From: an uncultured Candidatus Saccharibacteria bacterium
Lineage (GTDB): Bacteria; Patescibacteriota; Minisyncoccia; Minisyncoccales; CAYUYO01
Reading direction: 5' to 3'
NCBI GenBank assembly: GCA_964449385.1
Contig: CAYUYO010000001.1
Span: forward strand, 36,720 to 100,719
DNA length: 64,000 bases
Shown: one piece after another, positions 46,420 to 54,028 of the stretch
How the letters are laid out: every line of letters starts with the position of its first letter
Numbering within the stretch: the first letter of the stretch is position 1
Translations under genes and position numbers: made by a program
Notes under the pieces: model-generated
The model's database searches: none
What the model was told of the DNA's origin: nothing
Seen by the model: only the letters and a program-made list of their open reading frames with translations

Positions 46420-47655
46420 TCAATATCCTTTCAATTTTTTAAGGGAGCGATGTTCTCTGACACGCTCTAATGCTTTAGCTTCAATCTGACGAATTCTCTC
46501 CCTGGTAACTCCGAATACCTGGCCAACCTCTTCTAAAGTATGAGTAACACCATCGTCTAATCCAAATCTCATTTCTAAAATTTTTTGTTCTCGAGGAGTT
46601 AAATCAATTAAAATTTCTTCTAGTCTTTCTCTTAATAAAGTTCTGGCCGCTGTTTTTGACGGAGACGGAACTTTTTCATCTTCAATAAATTCCGACAAAA
46701 CACTGTCTTCTTCATTATCTCCAACCGGCGTTTCCAGAGAAATAGTTTCTTGAGAGATTTTCATAATATGGCGTACTTTATCCACTTCAATTCCCATTTC
46801 AGAAGCAATTTCTTCCGGTAAGGGATCCCTGCCCAAACCCTGTAAAAGTCTTCTCCTTGCTTGGGTATATTTGGAGATAGTTTCCACCATATGAACCGGT
46901 ATTCTAATAGTTCTTGCCTGGTCAGCCAAAGCCCTGGTGATCGCCTGTCTTATCCACCAAGTAGCATAGGTTGAAAATTTATATCCCCTTCTCCAATCAA
47001 ATTTCACTACTGCTCGGAATAATCCTAAATTTCCTTCTTGAATTAAATCAAGCAAGGTTAAATTTGGGCTGCGACCAATATATCTTTTAGCAATAGAAAC
47101 AACTAATCTTAAATTAGCTTTGGCAAGTTTTTTCTTTGCATCTTCGTCCCCTTTTTCAATTCGTTTAGATAACTCTTTTTCCCCTTCTGCAGTCAAAAAA
47201 GAATAAGAACCAATTTCTTTTAAATACATTTGAATCGGGTCAATTTTTGATGCCAAACGTTTTTTAGCTGGTTTAGAAGCATCTAAATCTAGAAATTCCT
47301 TGACTTCTTTCACTTCAATTCCTTTTTTTTCTAATTCATCATATAATTTCTCTAATCCATTAATATCCTTTTCCATTTCAGGGAAAGAGGTTAAAATTTC
47401 CGAAGACGTAATAAAACCACGCTGTCTTCCTTTTTCCATTAATTGCTGAATTTTCTCTTCGGTGAAAATCTTTTTAGATCTGCTAGATACAGTTTTTGCT
47501 TTCTTTTTTGTTTTCTTGATTGCTTTCTTAACTACTTTCTTGGTTATTTTTTTGGTAATCTTCTTAACTGTTTTCTTAGTTGCCTTCTTGACTACTTTTT
47601 TAACTGCTTTTTTGGTCGTTTTCTTTTTTATTTTTTTTGTTTTTTTCTTTTTCAT
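46420..47655 (-). CDS. rpoD: RNA polymerase sigma factor RpoD (sigma-70) with Lys-rich KKxxKK N-terminal repeats
   Basis: Regions 2-4 present ([14 protein letters not shown]...; region 4 [20 protein letters not shown]). N-terminal ~55 aa of (T/V)KK repeats. Confidence 0.9.
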
Positions 47656-50528
47656 CCGATTATTTCTTTAGCTAATTGATTAAAGTCTTGAGTTAATTTT
47701 TCCAGTTTTTTTGAATCTTTCTCGAATTCAGCTTTTTTAATTTCTTTGGAAATTTCATCCAGTTTATTTTTAATTTTCAAGGATTGAAGTTCTGCTAAGC
47801 AATATTTTATTTCAGATTCTACTTCTTTTTCCTCTATATCTTCTATTTCTGCTTTCAGTGAAAGATAATTAAAAAACTCTGAGTCAGGATTTTGATTTTT
47901 TCTTAAACTAATTAAAAATTTCTGAATATCGTCTGGAAAATCAACTAGTTTATCTTTTTCAATAAGATTTATATTTTTAGGAAATTTTATAATTAAAGTA
48001 ACTATTCTTTCTTCTAAAAGTTCTTTTCTCGACTTTATAGGATTCTTGTTTTCAGCAGGAAGAGAAACTATCTCAATATTTTCAATTTTTGTTTTTTTTA
48101 ATTCTTCTTCAACGCTTTCTTCTTTAACTTCTAATTTCTTTGCCAATTCCTGAATCCAAAATGATTGTTCAATTTTATTCGGAATTCTCCTAATAACGGG
48201 CAAAAGGATTTTAGAAATTTCCCTTTTGTCTTCTGGAGTTTTGGAATCTCTACTGGAAAAAGTTGTATCAAAATAAAAATCAAGAATTGACTTTGTTGAT
48301 TTAAGAGCTTCTTTCCAAATATTGGGATCTTTGGCAATGATTTCGGCCGGGTCTTTGCCTTTTGGTAAAAGCACTACTTTTATATTAAACCCTTGAGTCT
48401 GAGCTAGATCAATCCCCTTTTTGGTAGCGGAATCACCGGCAATATCCATATCGAAAGAAGTTAATAAATTACTGGAATATCTTTTCAAAATTTTTAATTG
48501 AAAGGAAGTTAGAGCCGTTCCAGAAACAGCTGCAACATTTTCATTACCTGCTTGGGAAACCATAATAACATCTGTATAACCCTCAACTAAAATACAAGAA
48601 TCTTTTTTTCTAATTTCTATTTTTGCTTTATTCAAACCGTACAAAGTTTGGCTTTTATCATAAAGAAGAGTGTTGGGCGTATTAAGATATTTAGCAGGAT
48701 CATCGGACTTGAATATTCTTCCTCCGAAACCAATAACCTGAGAGTTCAAGTCAAAAATAGGAAAAATAATTCTGCCTCTGAATCTGTCAAAAAAATTTCC
48801 TTTAGCTTTTTCAGATTTAATAGCTAAGCCGGCTTTCTCTATTTCTTCTTTCTGATATCCTTTAGAAATTAAAAAATCAGACAATCCTTGCCAAACATCC
48901 GGCGAATAACCGAGCCTCCACTTCTTAATACTTTCTTCTAAAATCCCTCTCTGTAAAAGATATTCTTTTACTTCTTGGCCTACTTTTGATTCTAACTGCC
49001 TTTCGAAAAATTGAGCTGCCAGTTCGCAAATTTCATATAATCTTTGCCTTTCTGTTTTTAATTCCGGAGATTGTTTTTTTAATTCCACGCCAGCTCTCTG
49101 AGCTAAAATTCTCAAAGCATCGCCGAACTCCACTCCCTCAATTTTCATTACAAATTTAAAAATGTCACCTCCTTCACCGCAGTTCCCCACCACAAAATTA
49201 TTAGCTACATAAGAATGGTCTTTGTCTACGGTTAAATTATAAACGCTACCATTAAACTTCCTTTTCTTAATTTCTTTAACTGGAAAAAGAACGTATAAAA
49301 CATTATTTTTTTTATAAAAATCAGCAAAATGTAATTTAATATTTTCCTGCCAGGAAATTTCAAATGATTTTCTATGATGAACTCCTTTTTTATCAATTTT
49401 TGCTTTATTTGTGATGATTGTCGGTATAATTCCCAATCTTAATAAAATATCTCGTAATTGTTCAGTTAAAACCGGTGAAATAGTACCGATAGATTTGAAA
49501 TACCTTTCTGTTTTTGTCTTAGCTACTCTACCCGTATATCCATCTCCTCTAAAAATCGCCTCTAAAATTATTCTTTGCTTCTTCGGAGGAAGATGTTGAA
49601 AATCAAAAGGGATGTGTTTATTTTCTGCTCCTTTACCGCAAAGGTTTCCAAAAATATTAGCCAAATTAGAGCTATTAGCAACAATGTCTAAGCCCCTATA
49701 CTCTTTTCTCTTTTTACGCCGAATAGTACTCTCTAAATTAAATACATTTTTAAGGAAATTTATAATATCTTTGGCAAAATCTTTTTCATAAGTAGCGATG
49801 CTAAATATGATGTGCCCATAATTATCAACACTACCTTCTGCAATCCAGTATCCTATCAATTTTAAAAAGTCTTCATTCATTTCCACTTTCGTGGGAAATT
49901 TTTTTGATCTTCTGTCATGGTCACTAATCCTACGAGTAAAATAGTCATTCAAATTTATGAACTTTTTATCTTCTTCTTTCGTATCAATAGGAAAGAGCAA
50001 ATAATCATTTATGGAGATATTACCTATTGGAATTTTCTCTATTTTATAATCTAAAAAATATTTTGTAGGACAATTTCGTGAACAACGCCATTGACAAATT
50101 CTTGTTTCCCGATTTTTTTGTCTACAATTTTTTGTTTTTATAGCATACACTTCATGGTCGGCGGTCAAAGAAACCCAATCGCTAGATTTACGTACTCTTA
50201 TGTCTACTATTTCTCCATTGTATGGTCGTTTAAAGGTTTTAATAACTGGCATAAACCTTCCCTGGTGCGTAAGCACTTGCTGACCAATTTGCACATCTTC
50301 AATATTGTGATACCCTCTAAATGTTTTAATTAAAGAACCTGAAGGAAAACAACCACCAAAGCAATGCCAAATTTGCTTTGCTGGAGATATAAAAAAAGAA
50401 GGAGTCTTTTCCGAATGAAAAGGACAAAGAGCCCGATAATTTATTCCGGCTTTTTGCAGTTTGATATAACTACCAATAACTTCAACAATATCCAATCGCG
50501 ATTTAATTTCCTCAACCGGACTTAACAT
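47652..50528 (-). CDS. dnaG: DNA primase DnaG interrupted by an intein
   Basis: Zinc finger [11 protein letters not shown]...HCFG, then intein, then [17 protein letters not shown] domain ([13 protein letters not shown]...DMDIAGD). 958 aa against ~600 aa typical. Confidence 0.85.
49182..50351 (-). mobile_element. intein (~390 aa) with LAGLIDADG homing-endonuclease domain inside the dnaG zinc-finger coding region
   Basis: Block [11 protein letters not shown], block B LTADHEV, LAGLIDADG-like [11 protein letters not shown] and [12 protein letters not shown]-terminal [21 protein letters not shown] followed by +1 Cys. Confidence 0.8.
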
Positions 50529-50534
50529 AAAAGA

Positions 50535-51362
50535 TTATTTCTCTGATTTTTCTCTTGACCAAACTGACATTTGTGGAAATGGAATTTCTATGCCTTCTTT
50601 ATCAAAAGCAATTTTTAATCTTCGCCTAAACTCTTTTAAGGTATCCCATTGTTTAAGAGGTTTTGTTTCTCCTAAAACTTTTATTTCTACGCCAGATTCG
50701 CCAAATTTATCTGGTCCTGGCCCTGCTACCTGAATCGGCTTTATAATATATTCATTCCAAGGAGATTCAACCGCCATTTCCTGCCCTACTTTATTAATCA
50801 AAGTCATTACTTTGTCTATATCTTCTTTGTAAGCTACGGAAACATTCATGTGCGCTCTGGAAAAATCTTTAGTCAGATTAGCAGCCACTTTAAACGAGCC
50901 GTTAGGAATATGGTAAACTTTACCGTCCAAATCTCTTAAAACTGTTTTTCTTAAAGTAATATCTTCCACTCCTCCGCAGATTTCATCTAAACAAACCACG
51001 TCTCCTATTCGATACTGATTCTCAATAATTATAAAAAGACCGGCTAAAAAATCTCTCACTACATACTGAGCGCCAAAACCAAGAGCCACGCCAACAATTC
51101 CAGCGCCAGCTAAAATAGGCGCAATATTTATACCAAATTCCGGCAGGACCAGCATTACGGCCATAAACCAAACAATAATATTTAAAGCACCGTTAAAAAT
51201 TCCAATTAATGTATTTTCCCTTTTTTCTTCTGCTTCCTTGTTTTCGGATTTAACTGCTTGCCTGATTGTTTTTCCAACAAGTTTTTTACCAAAATGATTA
51301 ATTAAAAAAGCAGCAACTAAAATGCAAATAATTTTAATACCGTGAATGAAAATCCAGTCCAT
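50535..51362 (-). CDS. MscS-family mechanosensitive channel
   Basis: TM helices plus a conserved MscS beta domain (NYRIGDVV..., VGETKPL). Confidence 0.75.
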   Translation of the reverse strand: MDWIFIHGIKIICILVAAFLINHFGKKLVGKTIRQAVKSENKEAEEKRENTLIGIFNGALNIIVWFMAVMLVLPEFGINIAPILAGAGIVGVALGFGAQYVVRDFLAGLFIIIENQYRIGDVVCLDEICGGVEDITLRKTVLRDLDGKVYHIPNGSFKVAANLTKDFSRAHMNVSVAYKEDIDKVMTLINKVGQEMAVESPWNEYIIKPIQVAGPGPDKFGESGVEIKVLGETKPLKQWDTLKEFRRRLKIAFDKEGIEIPFPQMSVWSREKSEK

Positions 51363-51580
51363 AAATTTAAAAATAAAAATTAATTATTATGCGGGACACT
51401 TTCGGCCGTTCCGACCTTAGTCGTGGACAGATTCGTTTACTATCCGATTTTAATTATAACTCATTTTTATTAAAAGAAAAGTTCTCTCCCACAGATGTGA
51501 AAGAGAGCTCCGTCGTCCAAGGGACCAAGAAATCGAGTTTCCCAAACAAGAACCAAATTCCCAAGAGTCCAAGGACTTTT

Positions 51581-52213
51581 TTACTTGCAGAAGACCAAGA
51601 AATCGGCAGGATCCCAGATAAAGTCAGGATTGTCCCAATCCAAACTGCCGCAGAGCCATAGCTTCGAGGTAAGACACCCCACTAAGAACACGCGCGGGTG
51701 ACCAGCAGAATCGATAATGGGCTCCATCCATATAAGAACCCACTCGTTGTTCGGCTGGTCTTGGCATTGCAGACGCAGTTGAGGACCGACTTCTGGTGGA
51801 CAGAGCTCAAGTCCGAGTTCCTTGGCGCGTTCGTATATCTGGTCGCTCCGGGCACCTTTCTTGAAGCCGAGTTCGGCAAGCGTGACTTTTACAAGATCCA
51901 CCTCGATCGTCTCGGTAGCTACTGTAAAAGCTGGCTTTCCAAGGATGTCGTCGGCCCAGTGGCTGATATCAAATCCGTTGTCCTTCAGGGCTTTGCGGAA
52001 ATCATCAGCGGTCTTGAGGCCGGTGCCAAGGTTGATGGTTTTCCAGATATTGAATTCGGGATCGGGTGAACAAAATGCATTACTGAGAGCTTTCTGCACA
52101 GCCCTGGGGTTTTGAATCCATCTCTGCATCACATCGCCCGAAAGCTCGGGCATGTTCTCGCCGACCACGGCGAGAAATTTGGCAGTCTGCCGATCATAGG
52201 TTTTCGCTGTCAT
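51581..52213 (-). CDS. hypothetical protein in compositionally foreign (~50% GC) cassette
   Basis: Longest ORF of several alternative frames in the GC-rich block; SD AAGGAG upstream of the ATG; no motif recognised. Confidence 0.4.
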   Translation of the reverse strand: MTAKTYDRQTAKFLAVVGENMPELSGDVMQRWIQNPRAVQKALSNAFCSPDPEFNIWKTINLGTGLKTADDFRKALKDNGFDISHWADDILGKPAFTVATETIEVDLVKVTLAELGFKKGARSDQIYERAKELGLELCPPEVGPQLRLQCQDQPNNEWVLIWMEPIIDSAGHPRVFLVGCLTSKLWLCGSLDWDNPDFIWDPADFLVFCK

Positions 52214-52247
52214 TAGCGTTTTCTCCTTTTGCTAGCGGGCTACTTCT

Positions 52248-52299
52248 GTAGTCATAGCCAGTAGACACCGAAAAATCAGTGGCTTTTGGCTATGACTAC
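52248..52299. repeat. perfect 13-bp inverted repeat (gtagtcatagcca / tggctatgactac) with 26-nt spacer, 35-86 nt upstream of ORF 51581-52213
   Basis: Read directly from sequence. Confidence 0.7.
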
Positions 52300-52408
52300 T
52301 AATTCGCAAGTAAATAATGAAAAGAGCTAATTTATTATGTTTAAAGAGTAATACACTAATTAATTTCTGTCAATATTTCCGTGATACATTCTACTCTGAA
52401 GTGCAACA

Positions 52409-52440
52409 TAAAAAAATCACCCAAGAAGGTGATTTTTTTG
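52409..52440. terminator. bidirectional rho-independent terminator (atcacc-caagaa-ggtgat flanked by A7/T7)
   Basis: aaaaaaatcacccaagaaggtgattttttt downstream of the HNH gene. Confidence 0.65.
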
Positions 52441-52471
52441 ATAAGCACTTGAGCCGCAATTTATTTTAGAT

Positions 52472-52525
52472 TAATCGGGTTGCGTCGATAAGAAATTGTC
52501 TTGGCGGGACACTCAGGTTAAGTAT
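52472..52525. repeat. cassette-boundary repeat R1 (taatcggg...cgataagaaattgtcttggcgg + 8-nt variable + ggttaagtat)
   Basis: Matches R2 (53209-53248) and the 3' flank/3' end of tRNA-Ser (54047-54081). Confidence 0.6.
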
Positions 52526-52591
52526 TAATTATTTGAAGGTGTTTTGATGATATTTGTGGTACTCGCTAAGCCAGGCACGTGGGTCGGGATA

Positions 52592-53206
52592 TTATCTTCG
52601 AGCACCGAGAATCTTTTCACACAATTCCACTAGATATTGGCGTAGTAATTTTTCGTCCTTTTCTAAATTTATAAGTTTACGAATCTCTCTTGTCAAAAGT
52701 ATCGCCCTTGCATTTTGAATTACCAGATTATCACCCCTGTCTAATTTCCGATGACAGTTAGGACAAAGATTTAATATATTGAATGATTTTGAGCTTCCTT
52801 TTTCGGCATTTTCAATCCAATGTGCCTTATCTAAAGAACAGTCTTTTTCTCCGCATAGTTCACAGCAAGATCCAACGATTTTTGGTTTATTATTTAAAAG
52901 TTTTTTGTCGCGAGACGGTAAGTTTAACATTTGGACCCACGATCTTCGATGACTACGGAGATTTTTAGCAAAAATTAAATTTCTACTAGATGTTCCCCAG
53001 CGACGCGCAAATAATTTCTGTCCCATTCTCTCACTTAAATATAAATCTTTATAGTCTTTTTCGAACTTAACACGCAATACTTTTTCCATGTCTTTCATTT
53101 TTTGTGGCTTTTCGCCTGGCAGGATGGGTAGAAATCTACCCGTTTTTTTATCTAGTTTTGGATGAAAATTTTTCATAAGATGCTTGAAACTATGTATTTG
53201 GGTCAA
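52592..53206 (-). CDS. HNH-nuclease-domain protein
   Basis: C-terminal CELCGE...DKAHWIEN...NILNLCPNCHRKLD (HNH/Cys4). N-terminal ~100 aa unknown. Possible TTG or internal ATG start. Confidence 0.6.
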   Translation of the reverse strand: MTQIHSFKHLMKNFHPKLDKKTGRFLPILPGEKPQKMKDMEKVLRVKFEKDYKDLYLSERMGQKLFARRWGTSSRNLIFAKNLRSHRRSWVQMLNLPSRDKKLLNNKPKIVGSCCELCGEKDCSLDKAHWIENAEKGSSKSFNILNLCPNCHRKLDRGDNLVIQNARAILLTREIRKLINLEKDEKLLRQYLVELCEKILGARR

Positions 53207-53208
53207 AC

Positions 53209-53248
53209 CGATAATAAATTGTCTTGGCGGTAGCCATGGGTTAAGTAT
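53209..53248. repeat. cassette-boundary repeat R2 (cgataataaattgtcttggcgg + tagccatg + ggttaagtat)
   Basis: 21/22-nt identity with the R1 core; shares the ggttaagtat tail. Confidence 0.6.
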
Positions 53249-53332
53249 CCATGAGAAAGTATCTCACAAGGCTATTTTAACAGATTTCCCGATTGAGAAC
53301 CGAGGCTCTCGGGTCAGACTATATTTTCATTT

Positions 53333-54028
53333 TTATTGAACCGGATGTTTCTTAAGATAGTTATTTATTTTCTCCATTATCCGATCATTCATCTCCATTA
53401 CTTTCAGCACCAACCTATTCGCACGGCTTGCTTTCGCTTGAATATTTTGTTTCCAGAGTTTGGACATCACTTTCGGGTCCTTAGATTCAATATTTGGGAT
53501 CATTAGATTACTGTATCCACCCTCCTTGCCATAGTATCGACGGTGAGTCATCAAAATTCTTTCACTCAAAGTACTTTTAAAATCTTTGTCTTTATCAAAT
53601 TTTTTTAATTCTGTGTCTAGGCGTGCATCCCTAATAATACCGTGGCTAATTATAGTTGAAAGTATTCCCATACTCTTTTCGTCAAAACCAATCCTTAGAC
53701 CTTGATTTACAAACTGAATTACTTTATCGCGATAACCAGTTACTCGAAAAGTAAAATTCTCAATGTGATACAAAGAATTCTCGAAGTGAACAAAGCCAGT
53801 TCGCGAAACAAGATGCCCGCAATCTTTCTTGCTGATACAACTTATCTGATAGTTACACAGTGCTACTGATTCTTGAAGTTTCTGATTAATACGTCGGAGA
53901 TCAGTCGTCAAATGTAACAACTCGTAATGGTAATCTCTTGCGAGTTTAGTAAATCTATTCCCCTGAAAATCAAAGAAAGGTCTCTTCGTTTTCTTTACTT
54001 TTTTCTTACGAATCTTTTTCTTAGTCAT
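53333..54028 (-). CDS. hypothetical protein (Lys-rich N-terminus), cassette cargo
   Basis: 231 aa, no motif recognised. Confidence 0.4.
   Translation of the reverse strand: MTKKKIRKKKVKKTKRPFFDFQGNRFTKLARDYHYELLHLTTDLRRINQKLQESVALCNYQISCISKKDCGHLVSRTGFVHFENSLYHIENFTFRVTGYRDKVIQFVNQGLRIGFDEKSMGILSTIISHGIIRDARLDTELKKFDKDKDFKSTLSERILMTHRRYYGKEGGYSNLMIPNIESKDPKVMSKLWKQNIQAKASRANRLVLKVMEMNDRIMEKINNYLKKHPVQ

Follow-up and report, generated by a model that had tools for sequence, protein, structure and literature searches.

DnaG ranks within the 15 leading intein hosts of bacteria, and Actinobacteria and Proteobacteria contribute 14 catalogued cases (Novikova 2016, PMC4760082, Table 1); actinobacteriophage DnaG-like primases also carry inteins (bioRxiv 10.1101/2025.01.02.630785). 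The hosts of the phage elements were defined by the entry IPR006171, not by the zinc knuckle of the primase. This entry presumably denotes the Toprim domain. The phrase 'DnaG intein' was not found in the searchable literature, where the inteins of Patescibacteria receive only passing mentions. Here we analysed a 64-kb stretch of DNA (the window) from an uncultured Candidatus Saccharibacteria bacterium, in which the dnaG gene is split inside the sequence for its zinc knuckle by an insert with a LAGLIDADG homing endonuclease. The insert shares with the catalogued DnaG inteins the host family, and replisome proteins are preferred intein hosts, whereas the phyla differ. We regard it as very probable that the insert is a bona fide class-1 intein with a LAGLIDADG homing endonuclease in the CHC2 knuckle of DnaG, and that it is the copy of a CX3C-linked sub-lineage residing in a CX2C-type genome, CX3C and CX2C being knuckles with three or two residues between the last two cysteines.

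Among solved structures, the inteins with homing endonucleases (the VMA inteins of Thermococcus litoralis and Pyrococcus horikoshii, PI-SceI, PI-PkoII and PI-PfuI) offer the comparison. The window intein resembles them in its Hint domain with a nested two-motif LAGLIDADG endonuclease, in Cys1, in the T-x-x-H of block B, in the C-terminal Asn and in the Cys at +1, and its predicted fold matches theirs at E=1e-22 to 1e-12, with a sequence identity of only 13-17%. It differs from them in the host protein and site, in the absence of the penultimate His, in an Asn at block F position 4 (F:4), and in an extra four-cysteine insert that is carried by the window copy and 28 of the 72 other members of the DnaG-site family.

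The intein and its host gene

The intein lies in a single open reading frame for a 958-aa precursor, and the conservation of its residues was counted over 73 inteins at the same site of DnaG (the window copy and 72 others). The features of the gene are listed below.

47652..50528, minus strand: dnaG precursor, 958 aa, the sole open reading frame spanning the region
50352..50528, minus strand: N-extein, aa 1-59, with the three zinc ligands C35, H38 and C56
50415-50426, minus strand: CPFH of the N-extein, with C35 and H38
50352-50363, minus strand: CFGG of the N-extein, with C56; the second Gly codon (GGT GGT) produces the CX3C spacing
49182..50351, minus strand: intein, class 1, with nested LAGLIDADG homing endonuclease, 390 aa, precursor aa 60-449
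50322..50351, minus strand: block A; Cys1, the nucleophile of splicing step 1, is present in 73/73 members
50154..50165, minus strand: block B, TADH, intein residues 63-66; T63 and H66 in 73/73 members
50070..50126, minus strand: Cys-rich insert C-x9-C-x3-C-x3-C, intein residues 76-94, between block B and the endonuclease
49380..49946, minus strand: homing endonuclease domain, approximately intein residues 136-324, matching LAGLIDADG_3 and, by predicted fold, I-DmoI, I-Tsp061I and PI-SceI
49830-49859, minus strand: LAGLIDADG motif 1, residues 165-174, with LIGYWIAEG; acid E172 in 71/73 members
49791..49829, minus strand: first beta-hairpin after LAGLIDADG helix 1, strands 173-175 and 180-185 in the model
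49536-49568, minus strand: LAGLIDADG motif 2, residues 262-272; acid D270 in 72/73 members
49182..49244, minus strand: blocks F and G; H379 and N390 in 73/73 members, Asn390 being the terminal residue that would cyclise
49179..49181, minus strand: +1 Cys, precursor C450, nucleophile of splicing step 2; Cys in 73/73 members
47652..49181, minus strand: C-extein, with the remainder of the zinc-binding domain and the catalytic and C-terminal primase domains

The precursor opens with MLSPVEEIK, a normal start for a bacterial primase, and continues through the intein-split zinc-binding domain (a CHC2 zinc ribbon), the RNA polymerase core, the Toprim domain and the DnaB-binding domain, with Pfam matches to Zn_ribbon_DnaG, DNAG_N, Toprim_2 and DnaB_bind. 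With the intein removed, the 568-aa product matched TIGR01391 dnaG (E=9e-125) and aligned end to end with 2AU3, the primase of Aquifex aeolicus (1e-64), and with 1D0Q, the zinc-binding domain from Geobacillus (3e-31), as a bacterial DnaG should. Neither a second dnaG nor a second copy of the DnaG-site intein family was found within the 64-kb window. Assemblies of samples in ENA, JGI, Logan and NCBI contain the identical 958-aa protein on at least 24 contigs.

The original prediction, made from the sequence alone, had placed a full-size LAGLIDADG intein in the zinc finger of DnaG at 49182-50351. These coordinates proved exact, and the motifs that it quoted (TADH, two LAGLIDADG motifs, and a terminal ...VVGN followed by Cys) are all present in the translated frame, where the insert ends in VANNFVVGN. 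Profile searches and the predicted fold agreed with it, the profile matches being well beyond chance. LAGLIDADG_3 of Pfam matched in two stretches at 56.6 bits (cutoff 22.5) and TIGR01443 intein_Cterm of NCBIfam at 23.5-26.2 bits (cutoff 15.6), while two further Pfam models stayed slightly below their cutoffs, Intein_splicing at 35.5 bits against 35.8 and Hint_2, which covers intein residues 1-46, at 26.7 against 28.4. The endonuclease part matched the NCBI models of intein-containing GyrA and Tes, and a family profile built from the window intein and its homologues retrieved from the PDB PI-PkoII (4.8e-24), followed by VMA1, PI-SceI, the KlbA mini-intein and gp41-1. The insert is in frame, its removal restores a contiguous homologue and intein-free alleles exist; it starts with Cys, carries the T-x-x-H of block B, and ends in Asn followed by Cys at +1, all of which characterise a class-1 intein. 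Other boundaries were considered and rejected, as a start at Gly59 lacks a nucleophile and a start at Cys56 deletes a zinc ligand. In all 72 same-site homologues the junction lies directly before the Cys of C(F/L)P.

The penultimate His of block G is replaced by Gly in the window copy, as had been read from the sequence. Inteins without a penultimate His exist, and its absence does not bar membership. Because the penultimate residue is never His in the 73 members (G 36, A 19, S 15, K 2, N 1), its absence is a trait of the family and not a defect of the window copy. At F:4, the family has Asn in 64 members, the window copy included, and Asp in 9.

The AlphaFold2 model of the intein, computed from a 19-sequence alignment, reached a predicted local distance difference test score (pLDDT) of 88.5 and a predicted template modelling score (pTM) of 0.88, with low confidence only at residues 71-100 and 141-150. 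When the model was compared with the PDB by Foldseek, the top 16 matches were all inteins associated with homing endonucleases, led by TliVMA (1.4e-22, TMq 0.68) and followed by PI-SceI, PhoVMA, PI-PkoII and PI-PfuI; free-standing LAGLIDADG enzymes such as I-DmoI came after them. Together with the profile matches to the KlbA and gp41-1 mini-inteins, the predicted model points to a Hint fold. Its endonuclease part has two LAGLIDADG helices, each ending in an acid followed by Gly, the predicted secondary structure of residues 160-334 fits the alpha-beta-beta-alpha-beta-beta-alpha pattern of the subdomains, and the Foldseek matches for this fold were I-DmoI, I-Tsp061I and I-SceI.

The Cys-rich insert was found in 29 of the 73 members, some having C-x3-C-x2-C instead and others a longer Cys-free insert or none. 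It was weakly modelled by AlphaFold2 (pLDDT about 50-66) and could be a small metal-binding or disulfide module. In another same-site DnaG intein, P0010, a 30-residue deletion at alignment columns 255-284 removes the second LAGLIDADG motif, and its endonuclease looks like a decaying one.

The intein is inserted after the Gly that follows the third zinc ligand and directly before the fourth-ligand Cys of the CHC2 knuckle. C35, H38, C56 and the +1 Cys aligned with C40, H43, C61 and C64 of 1D0Q, and the +1 Cys also aligned with the equivalent Cys of 2AU3. The four residues of 1D0Q are the zinc ligands of that structure, and the Pfam family is named 'CHC2 zinc finger'. The alignment with C64 bears out the original claim that the +1 Cys is the last zinc ligand and, as far as sequence can tell, supports a dual role of this residue as the splicing nucleophile and as the fourth zinc ligand of the mature primase. 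It had also been claimed that a functional finger exists only after splicing. The third and fourth ligands are indeed separated in the precursor, but this part of the claim is a deduction, and the intein Cys1 itself occupies the sequence position of the fourth ligand, the Aquifex Cys aligning to both junction cysteines in the family-profile alignment. Because of Cys1, a complete-looking CHC2 motif is present in the unspliced precursor too.

That the joined exteins restore a normal zinc motif held only in part. A contiguous DnaG is restored (TIGR01391, 2AU3 and 1D0Q), but with the spacing CX3C instead of the normal CX2C. The spliced product reads HCFGGCG against the canonical HCFGCG, so that it has one extra residue, and a one-residue gap was opened before the last Cys in the alignments to both 1D0Q and 2AU3. 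The DNA directly before the intein is GGT GGT. The 'HCFG-G' of the original prediction had pointed to this spacing, which was left without an interpretation there. A sequencing or assembly error as the source of the extra Gly was ruled out by the recurrence on at least 24 contigs, and by CFGGC or CFGAC in 27 intein-free relatives, while CFGC (CX2C) was found in 91. The CX3C alleles have their own linked signature downstream, where the CX2C alleles mostly read GGDIFGF(V/I)KEIEG. The CX3C knuckle is thus a natural variant and not an error or a lesion. A CX3C-type empty site is provided by the P0040 allele, which reads TTTGGAGGA^TGCGGCGAAGGTGGG (^ marks the insertion point, here and below).

From the mechanism of class-1 inteins we infer that the window element splices and homes. 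An N-S acyl shift at Gly59-Cys60 of the 958-aa precursor would create a thioester, which would be attacked by Cys450 (+1) in a trans-thioesterification; Asn449 would then cyclise and release the intein, and an S-N shift would yield the 568-aa primase with a CFGGC (CX3C) knuckle, where the Cys formerly at +1 joins C35, H38 and C56 as a zinc ligand. The free 390-aa intein would cut an intein-less dnaG at ...TGC TTT GGN GGN^TGC GGN GAR GGN..., and repair would copy the intein into the cut allele and carry flanking extein along.

One insertion site in two lengths

As close relatives we took the 120 DnaG clusters that best matched the spliced sequence. Among them, P0020 is the identical protein, P0031 is another intein-bearing allele, and the other 118 are intein-free, with lengths of 564-595 aa. 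An empty insertion site, for which the original prediction had suggested looking, is therefore what close relatives normally have. When the intein was used in a word-indexed search, 12 further DnaG-borne homologues came up at 35-56% identity, and the few that bear names are called only generically 'hypothetical protein', 'LAGLIDADG family homing endonuclease' or 'CHC2 zinc finger domain-containing protein'. A scan of GTDB, with a single genome for each species, was seeded on the endonuclease motifs, so that mini-inteins at the site would escape it, and gave 87 confirmed loci, of which 80 were kept and 72 had readable junctions, CFG^C(F/L)(P/L/V)... and ...F-x-V-x-N^C(G/S/Q/H/D).

The same site is thus filled in at least 72 species-level genomes, mostly of Patescibacteria, and the record titles include Nealson-, Magasanik-, Moran-, Shapiro-, Levy-, Davies-, Collier-, Woese-, Chisholm-, Harrison- and Colwellbacteria. 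The original prediction had called inteins unusual in DnaG; with these genomes, and with DnaG among the top 15 hosts of PMC4760082, that was overstated. As an intein the element is ordinary. What it adds is an insertion site at the DnaG zinc knuckle that is well populated in public genomes of the candidate phyla radiation (CPR), where it is concentrated, and apparently undescribed, in bacteria whose inteins are barely discussed in the literature.

Family members at this site, for example L008, L009, L019 (Nealsonbacteria RBG_13_42_11) and P0031, are inserted at the identical point, CFG(G/S)^C...N^CG, measure 382-396 aa and are 37-67% identical to the window intein; the CX3C context and the altered endonuclease sheet described below are shared only by L008 and L009. 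Identities of intein and extein to the window are decoupled, at 57% and 74% for P0031 and at 55% and 47% for P0001. This decoupling, the sporadic distribution of the intein and the mosaic extein described below lend homing indirect support. When 1.84 billion cluster representatives were searched exhaustively with HMMER, about two dozen proteins with lengths of approximately 930-1020 aa had the intein near residues 58-61, and a long tail of inteins in other hosts followed, mostly at 25-36% identity. The phage collections gave no sign of a phage origin: IMG/VR yielded one match at 24% identity, and GenBank phages yielded inteins of at most 30% identity, all in other proteins.

The record labels of L034, L041, L050, L059 and L013-L016 include Pacearchaeota archaeon, Dehalococcoidales, Gammaproteobacteria and Omnitrophota. 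Crude labelling or mis-binning of contigs is the probable reason; were the labels genuine, they would mean cross-phylum transfer of a CPR-type DnaG intein. Three very large proteins, P0145 (3308 aa), P0284 (4392 aa) and P0218 (3003 aa), each matched the intein in 8-9 separate stretches and may be giant proteins with multiple inteins.

The two knuckle lengths are occupied by different inteins. Among the 72 other same-site inteins, 70 sit in CX2C alleles, and a CX3C context is found only in L008 (CFGG^C) and L009 (CFGS^C). These two are also the closest relatives of the window intein, with identities of 67% and 65%. The three formed a clade in 200/200 neighbour-joining bootstraps of the whole intein, in 92/100 with the splicing domain alone and in 100/100 with the endonuclease alone. 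Over the positions with at least 90% conservation in the family, each of the three deviates 12-15 times, more than any other member (median 3). Nine positions are altered in all three (112, 120, 146, 178, 179, 180, 213, 222 and 226), although the same positions are 91-100% conserved in the other 70 members, and at five of the nine the replacement is identical in all three (I112, F120, G179, H180 and N226).

According to the model, six of the nine positions are in the beta strands of subdomain 1, with 178-180 in or beside the first hairpin, which is altered against the near-invariant NHRAYIRFSLG of the 70 other members, and with 213, 222 and 226 in the next pair of strands. The sheet of the first LAGLIDADG subdomain is the DNA-contacting surface. 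Placed on the model, the changes suggest that this half of the endonuclease in the CX3C clade may have been remodelled for a target that is 3 bp longer, with its half-site shifted by three bases.

The locus L022 shares the MscS-dnaG-rpoD synteny of the window and has an extein 74.6% identical to that of the window, and its intein belongs to the main clade (56%) and sits in a CX2C allele. Because the two loci have the same synteny and inteins of different clades, it seems that two intein lineages entered closely related genomes in separate events.

A mosaic host gene

The extein of the window does not have a single closest group along its length. The tract and its boundary are as follows.

49104..50511, minus strand: CX3C-type recombinant tract, comprising N-extein, intein and about 80 nt of C-extein
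between 49014 and 49104, minus strand: 3' breakpoint of the CX3C-type tract; the gene downstream of it is closest to CX2C intein-free alleles

Over the first 440 extein residues, the closest proteins are P0030, P0021 and P0025, which are intein-free and of CX2C type (80-81% identity), compared with 73-77% for CX3C proteins. The relation is inverted at spliced residues 46-80, where identity is 87% with the CX3C group but 71% with P0030, P0021 and P0025, while every later segment is 72-84% identical to these three and 62-76% to the CX3C group. A diagnostic-site test with strict thresholds left only 4 sites, and looser protein and nucleotide versions were used. At the protein level, diagnostic sites were of CX3C type in 5/5 cases inside residues 46-80 and in 4/20 outside (Fisher p=0.002).

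The DNA comparison set consisted of the CX2C alleles L088 and L089 and the CX3C alleles L087, L090 and L008. In segments of 90 nt, identity over nt 120-270 of the spliced gene was 73-82% with the CX3C alleles but 61-70% with those of CX2C type. Beyond about nt 240 it dropped to 53-73% for P0040 and L008 and stood at 71-83% for the CX2C alleles, with which P0049 kept pace up to about nt 360. The diagnostic nucleotides were of CX3C type at 12/12 positions between nt 18 and 255, and of CX2C type at 26/31 positions after nt 345. In a maximum chi-square breakpoint test, the observed value was reached in 0 of 20,000 permutations. The flanks of the window dnaG have the synteny of the CX2C group: an MscS gene lies upstream of dnaG in the window and at the P0030, P0021 and L022 loci, but not at L008, L087 and L090.

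The simplest account of this mosaic is that an intein of the CX3C clade entered a CX2C-type genome and dragged the flanking sequence of the zinc-binding domain with it. The co-transferred flank fits such an event because double-strand-break repair during homing co-converts flanking extein. The family offers a natural experiment, in which one site exists in two lengths, CX2C and CX3C, each with its own intein lineage, and at least one mosaic gene connects the two backgrounds; this makes both the retargeting of the endonuclease and the co-conversion of extein testable.

Several observations weigh against the overall reading of a splicing, homing intein of the CX3C sub-lineage. Recombination that was not started by the endonuclease leaves the same trace, and the CX3C-like tract may reach the 5' end of the gene, in which case general recombination may have included the intein by chance. 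The composition shows no sign of a recent arrival of the intein, with GC 0.311 and GC at third codon positions (GC3) 0.238 against 0.314 and 0.224 in the host gene. As the penultimate His is absent and F:4 is Asn and not Asp, the chemistry of Asn cyclisation may differ from that of textbook inteins. Lastly, conservation of the endonuclease exceeds that of the splicing domain by 6.1 +/- 4.7 points in 254 further pairs with comparable divergence, whereas the corresponding differences within the CX3C clade are -1.4, -2.7 and -7.4 points, which could reflect relaxed constraint in this clade rather than retargeting.

A more far-reaching proposal is that the window intein, L008 and L009 form a homing endonuclease lineage that re-specialised on the one-codon-longer CFG(G/S)C site, with the DNA-contacting sheet of one endonuclease half rebuilt, and spreads CX3C into CX2C genomes by co-conversion, with splicing that might in addition respond to zinc or redox state, Cys1 and Cys+1 being alternatives for the fourth zinc ligand. 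We put this combination forward tentatively and consider it rather unlikely. If it were true, a mobile intein would be the force behind a structural polymorphism at the zinc site of an enzyme essential for replication.

Alternative readings and neighbouring genes

The alternative that survives best is an immobilised or decayed intein, which would still splice, as dnaG is needed, but would have a dead endonuclease and be inherited only vertically, the changes in the sheet being drift. We consider this a serious possibility, albeit an unlikely one. The rank of the window, L008 and L009 inteins as the top outliers would then record decay, which is known in the family from P0010, yet both catalytic acids and both LAGLIDADG Gly residues are kept in all three clade members. 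That the endonuclease of the clade, unlike that of other pairs, is not better conserved than the splicing domain agrees with decay as well; the nine shared deviations with their five identical replacements, on the other hand, suggest a selected new state over independent decay. Similarly, vertical inheritance would suit the fully ameliorated composition, but the mosaic extein points to at least one past transfer into this genome backbone.

Another alternative is a zinc or redox switch, in which C35, H38 and C56 would bind zinc or form a disulfide with Cys1 or Cys+1 in the precursor, making splicing and priming dependent on metal or redox state. Judged by analogy, such control is chemically reasonable but speculative, and we find it doubtful for the window element. 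In its favour, Cys1 fills the fourth-ligand position of the sequence, the genuine fourth ligand being Cys+1. Against it, inteins generally favour conserved ligand-binding motifs as good homing targets, so that the position needs no regulatory role, and most close relatives have no intein at all. There are precedents: zinc reversibly inhibits splicing of the mycobacterial DnaB intein in vivo (PMC7360933), a disulfide between an extein Cys and Cys1 blocks the MoaA intein of P. abyssi (PMC10663303), and a DnaB intein was described as an oxidative stress sensor (PMC6195587). In the P. abyssi MoaA intein and the M. smegmatis DnaB intein 1, a catalytic Cys lies beside Cys/His ligands of the extein (PMC10663303, PMC7360933), and the likeness of the window intein to them is positional only. 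With splice-junction cysteines that are zinc ligands of an essential primase, the element would be a clean candidate for metal- or redox-conditional splicing.

It is highly improbable that the insert does not splice at all, whether as a chimera of assembly, as a bacterial intein-like (BIL) domain or as a domain insertion that the primase tolerates: Intein_splicing and Hint_2 do score below their gathering thresholds, but the identical protein recurs across the four sequence collections, the C-terminal Asn390 and Cys+1 (73/73), the nested endonuclease and the conserved housekeeping site are traits of inteins and not of BIL domains, the predicted fold matches full inteins, and zinc ligands 3 and 4 would otherwise be left 390 residues apart. 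BIL domains are Hint domains that lack both a conserved nucleophile at +1 and the C-terminal Asn, carry no homing endonuclease and occur in variable proteins outside the housekeeping set.

Around dnaG, the following genes were noted.

46420-47655, minus strand: rpoD, with a long Lys-rich N-terminal tail
51581-52213, minus strand: 210-aa open reading frame in a GC-rich island
52592-53206, minus strand: 204-aa open reading frame with a weak HNH endonuclease match

dnaG is preceded by the MscS-type channel gene and followed by rpoD. The ATG of rpoD overlaps the stop codon of dnaG, which suggests a dnaG-rpoD operon with translational coupling. Upstream, a GC-rich island at 51400-52300 has a GC content of 0.45-0.53 against about 0.33 around it. 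Its 210-aa reading frame had no match in Pfam, PHROG or Rfam, and a search of 50500-53500 with Rfam gave no match, so the island is not a known RNA. The frame is present in all seven loci shown with an identical dnaG, in one of them truncated at the contig end, and it or the whole island may have been acquired horizontally. The 204-aa frame scored 19.5 bits with the HNH endonuclease model of Pfam, below the cutoff, and matched PHROG HNH families at E about 5e-5; it is possibly a second mobile-element nuclease within 3 kb of the intein.

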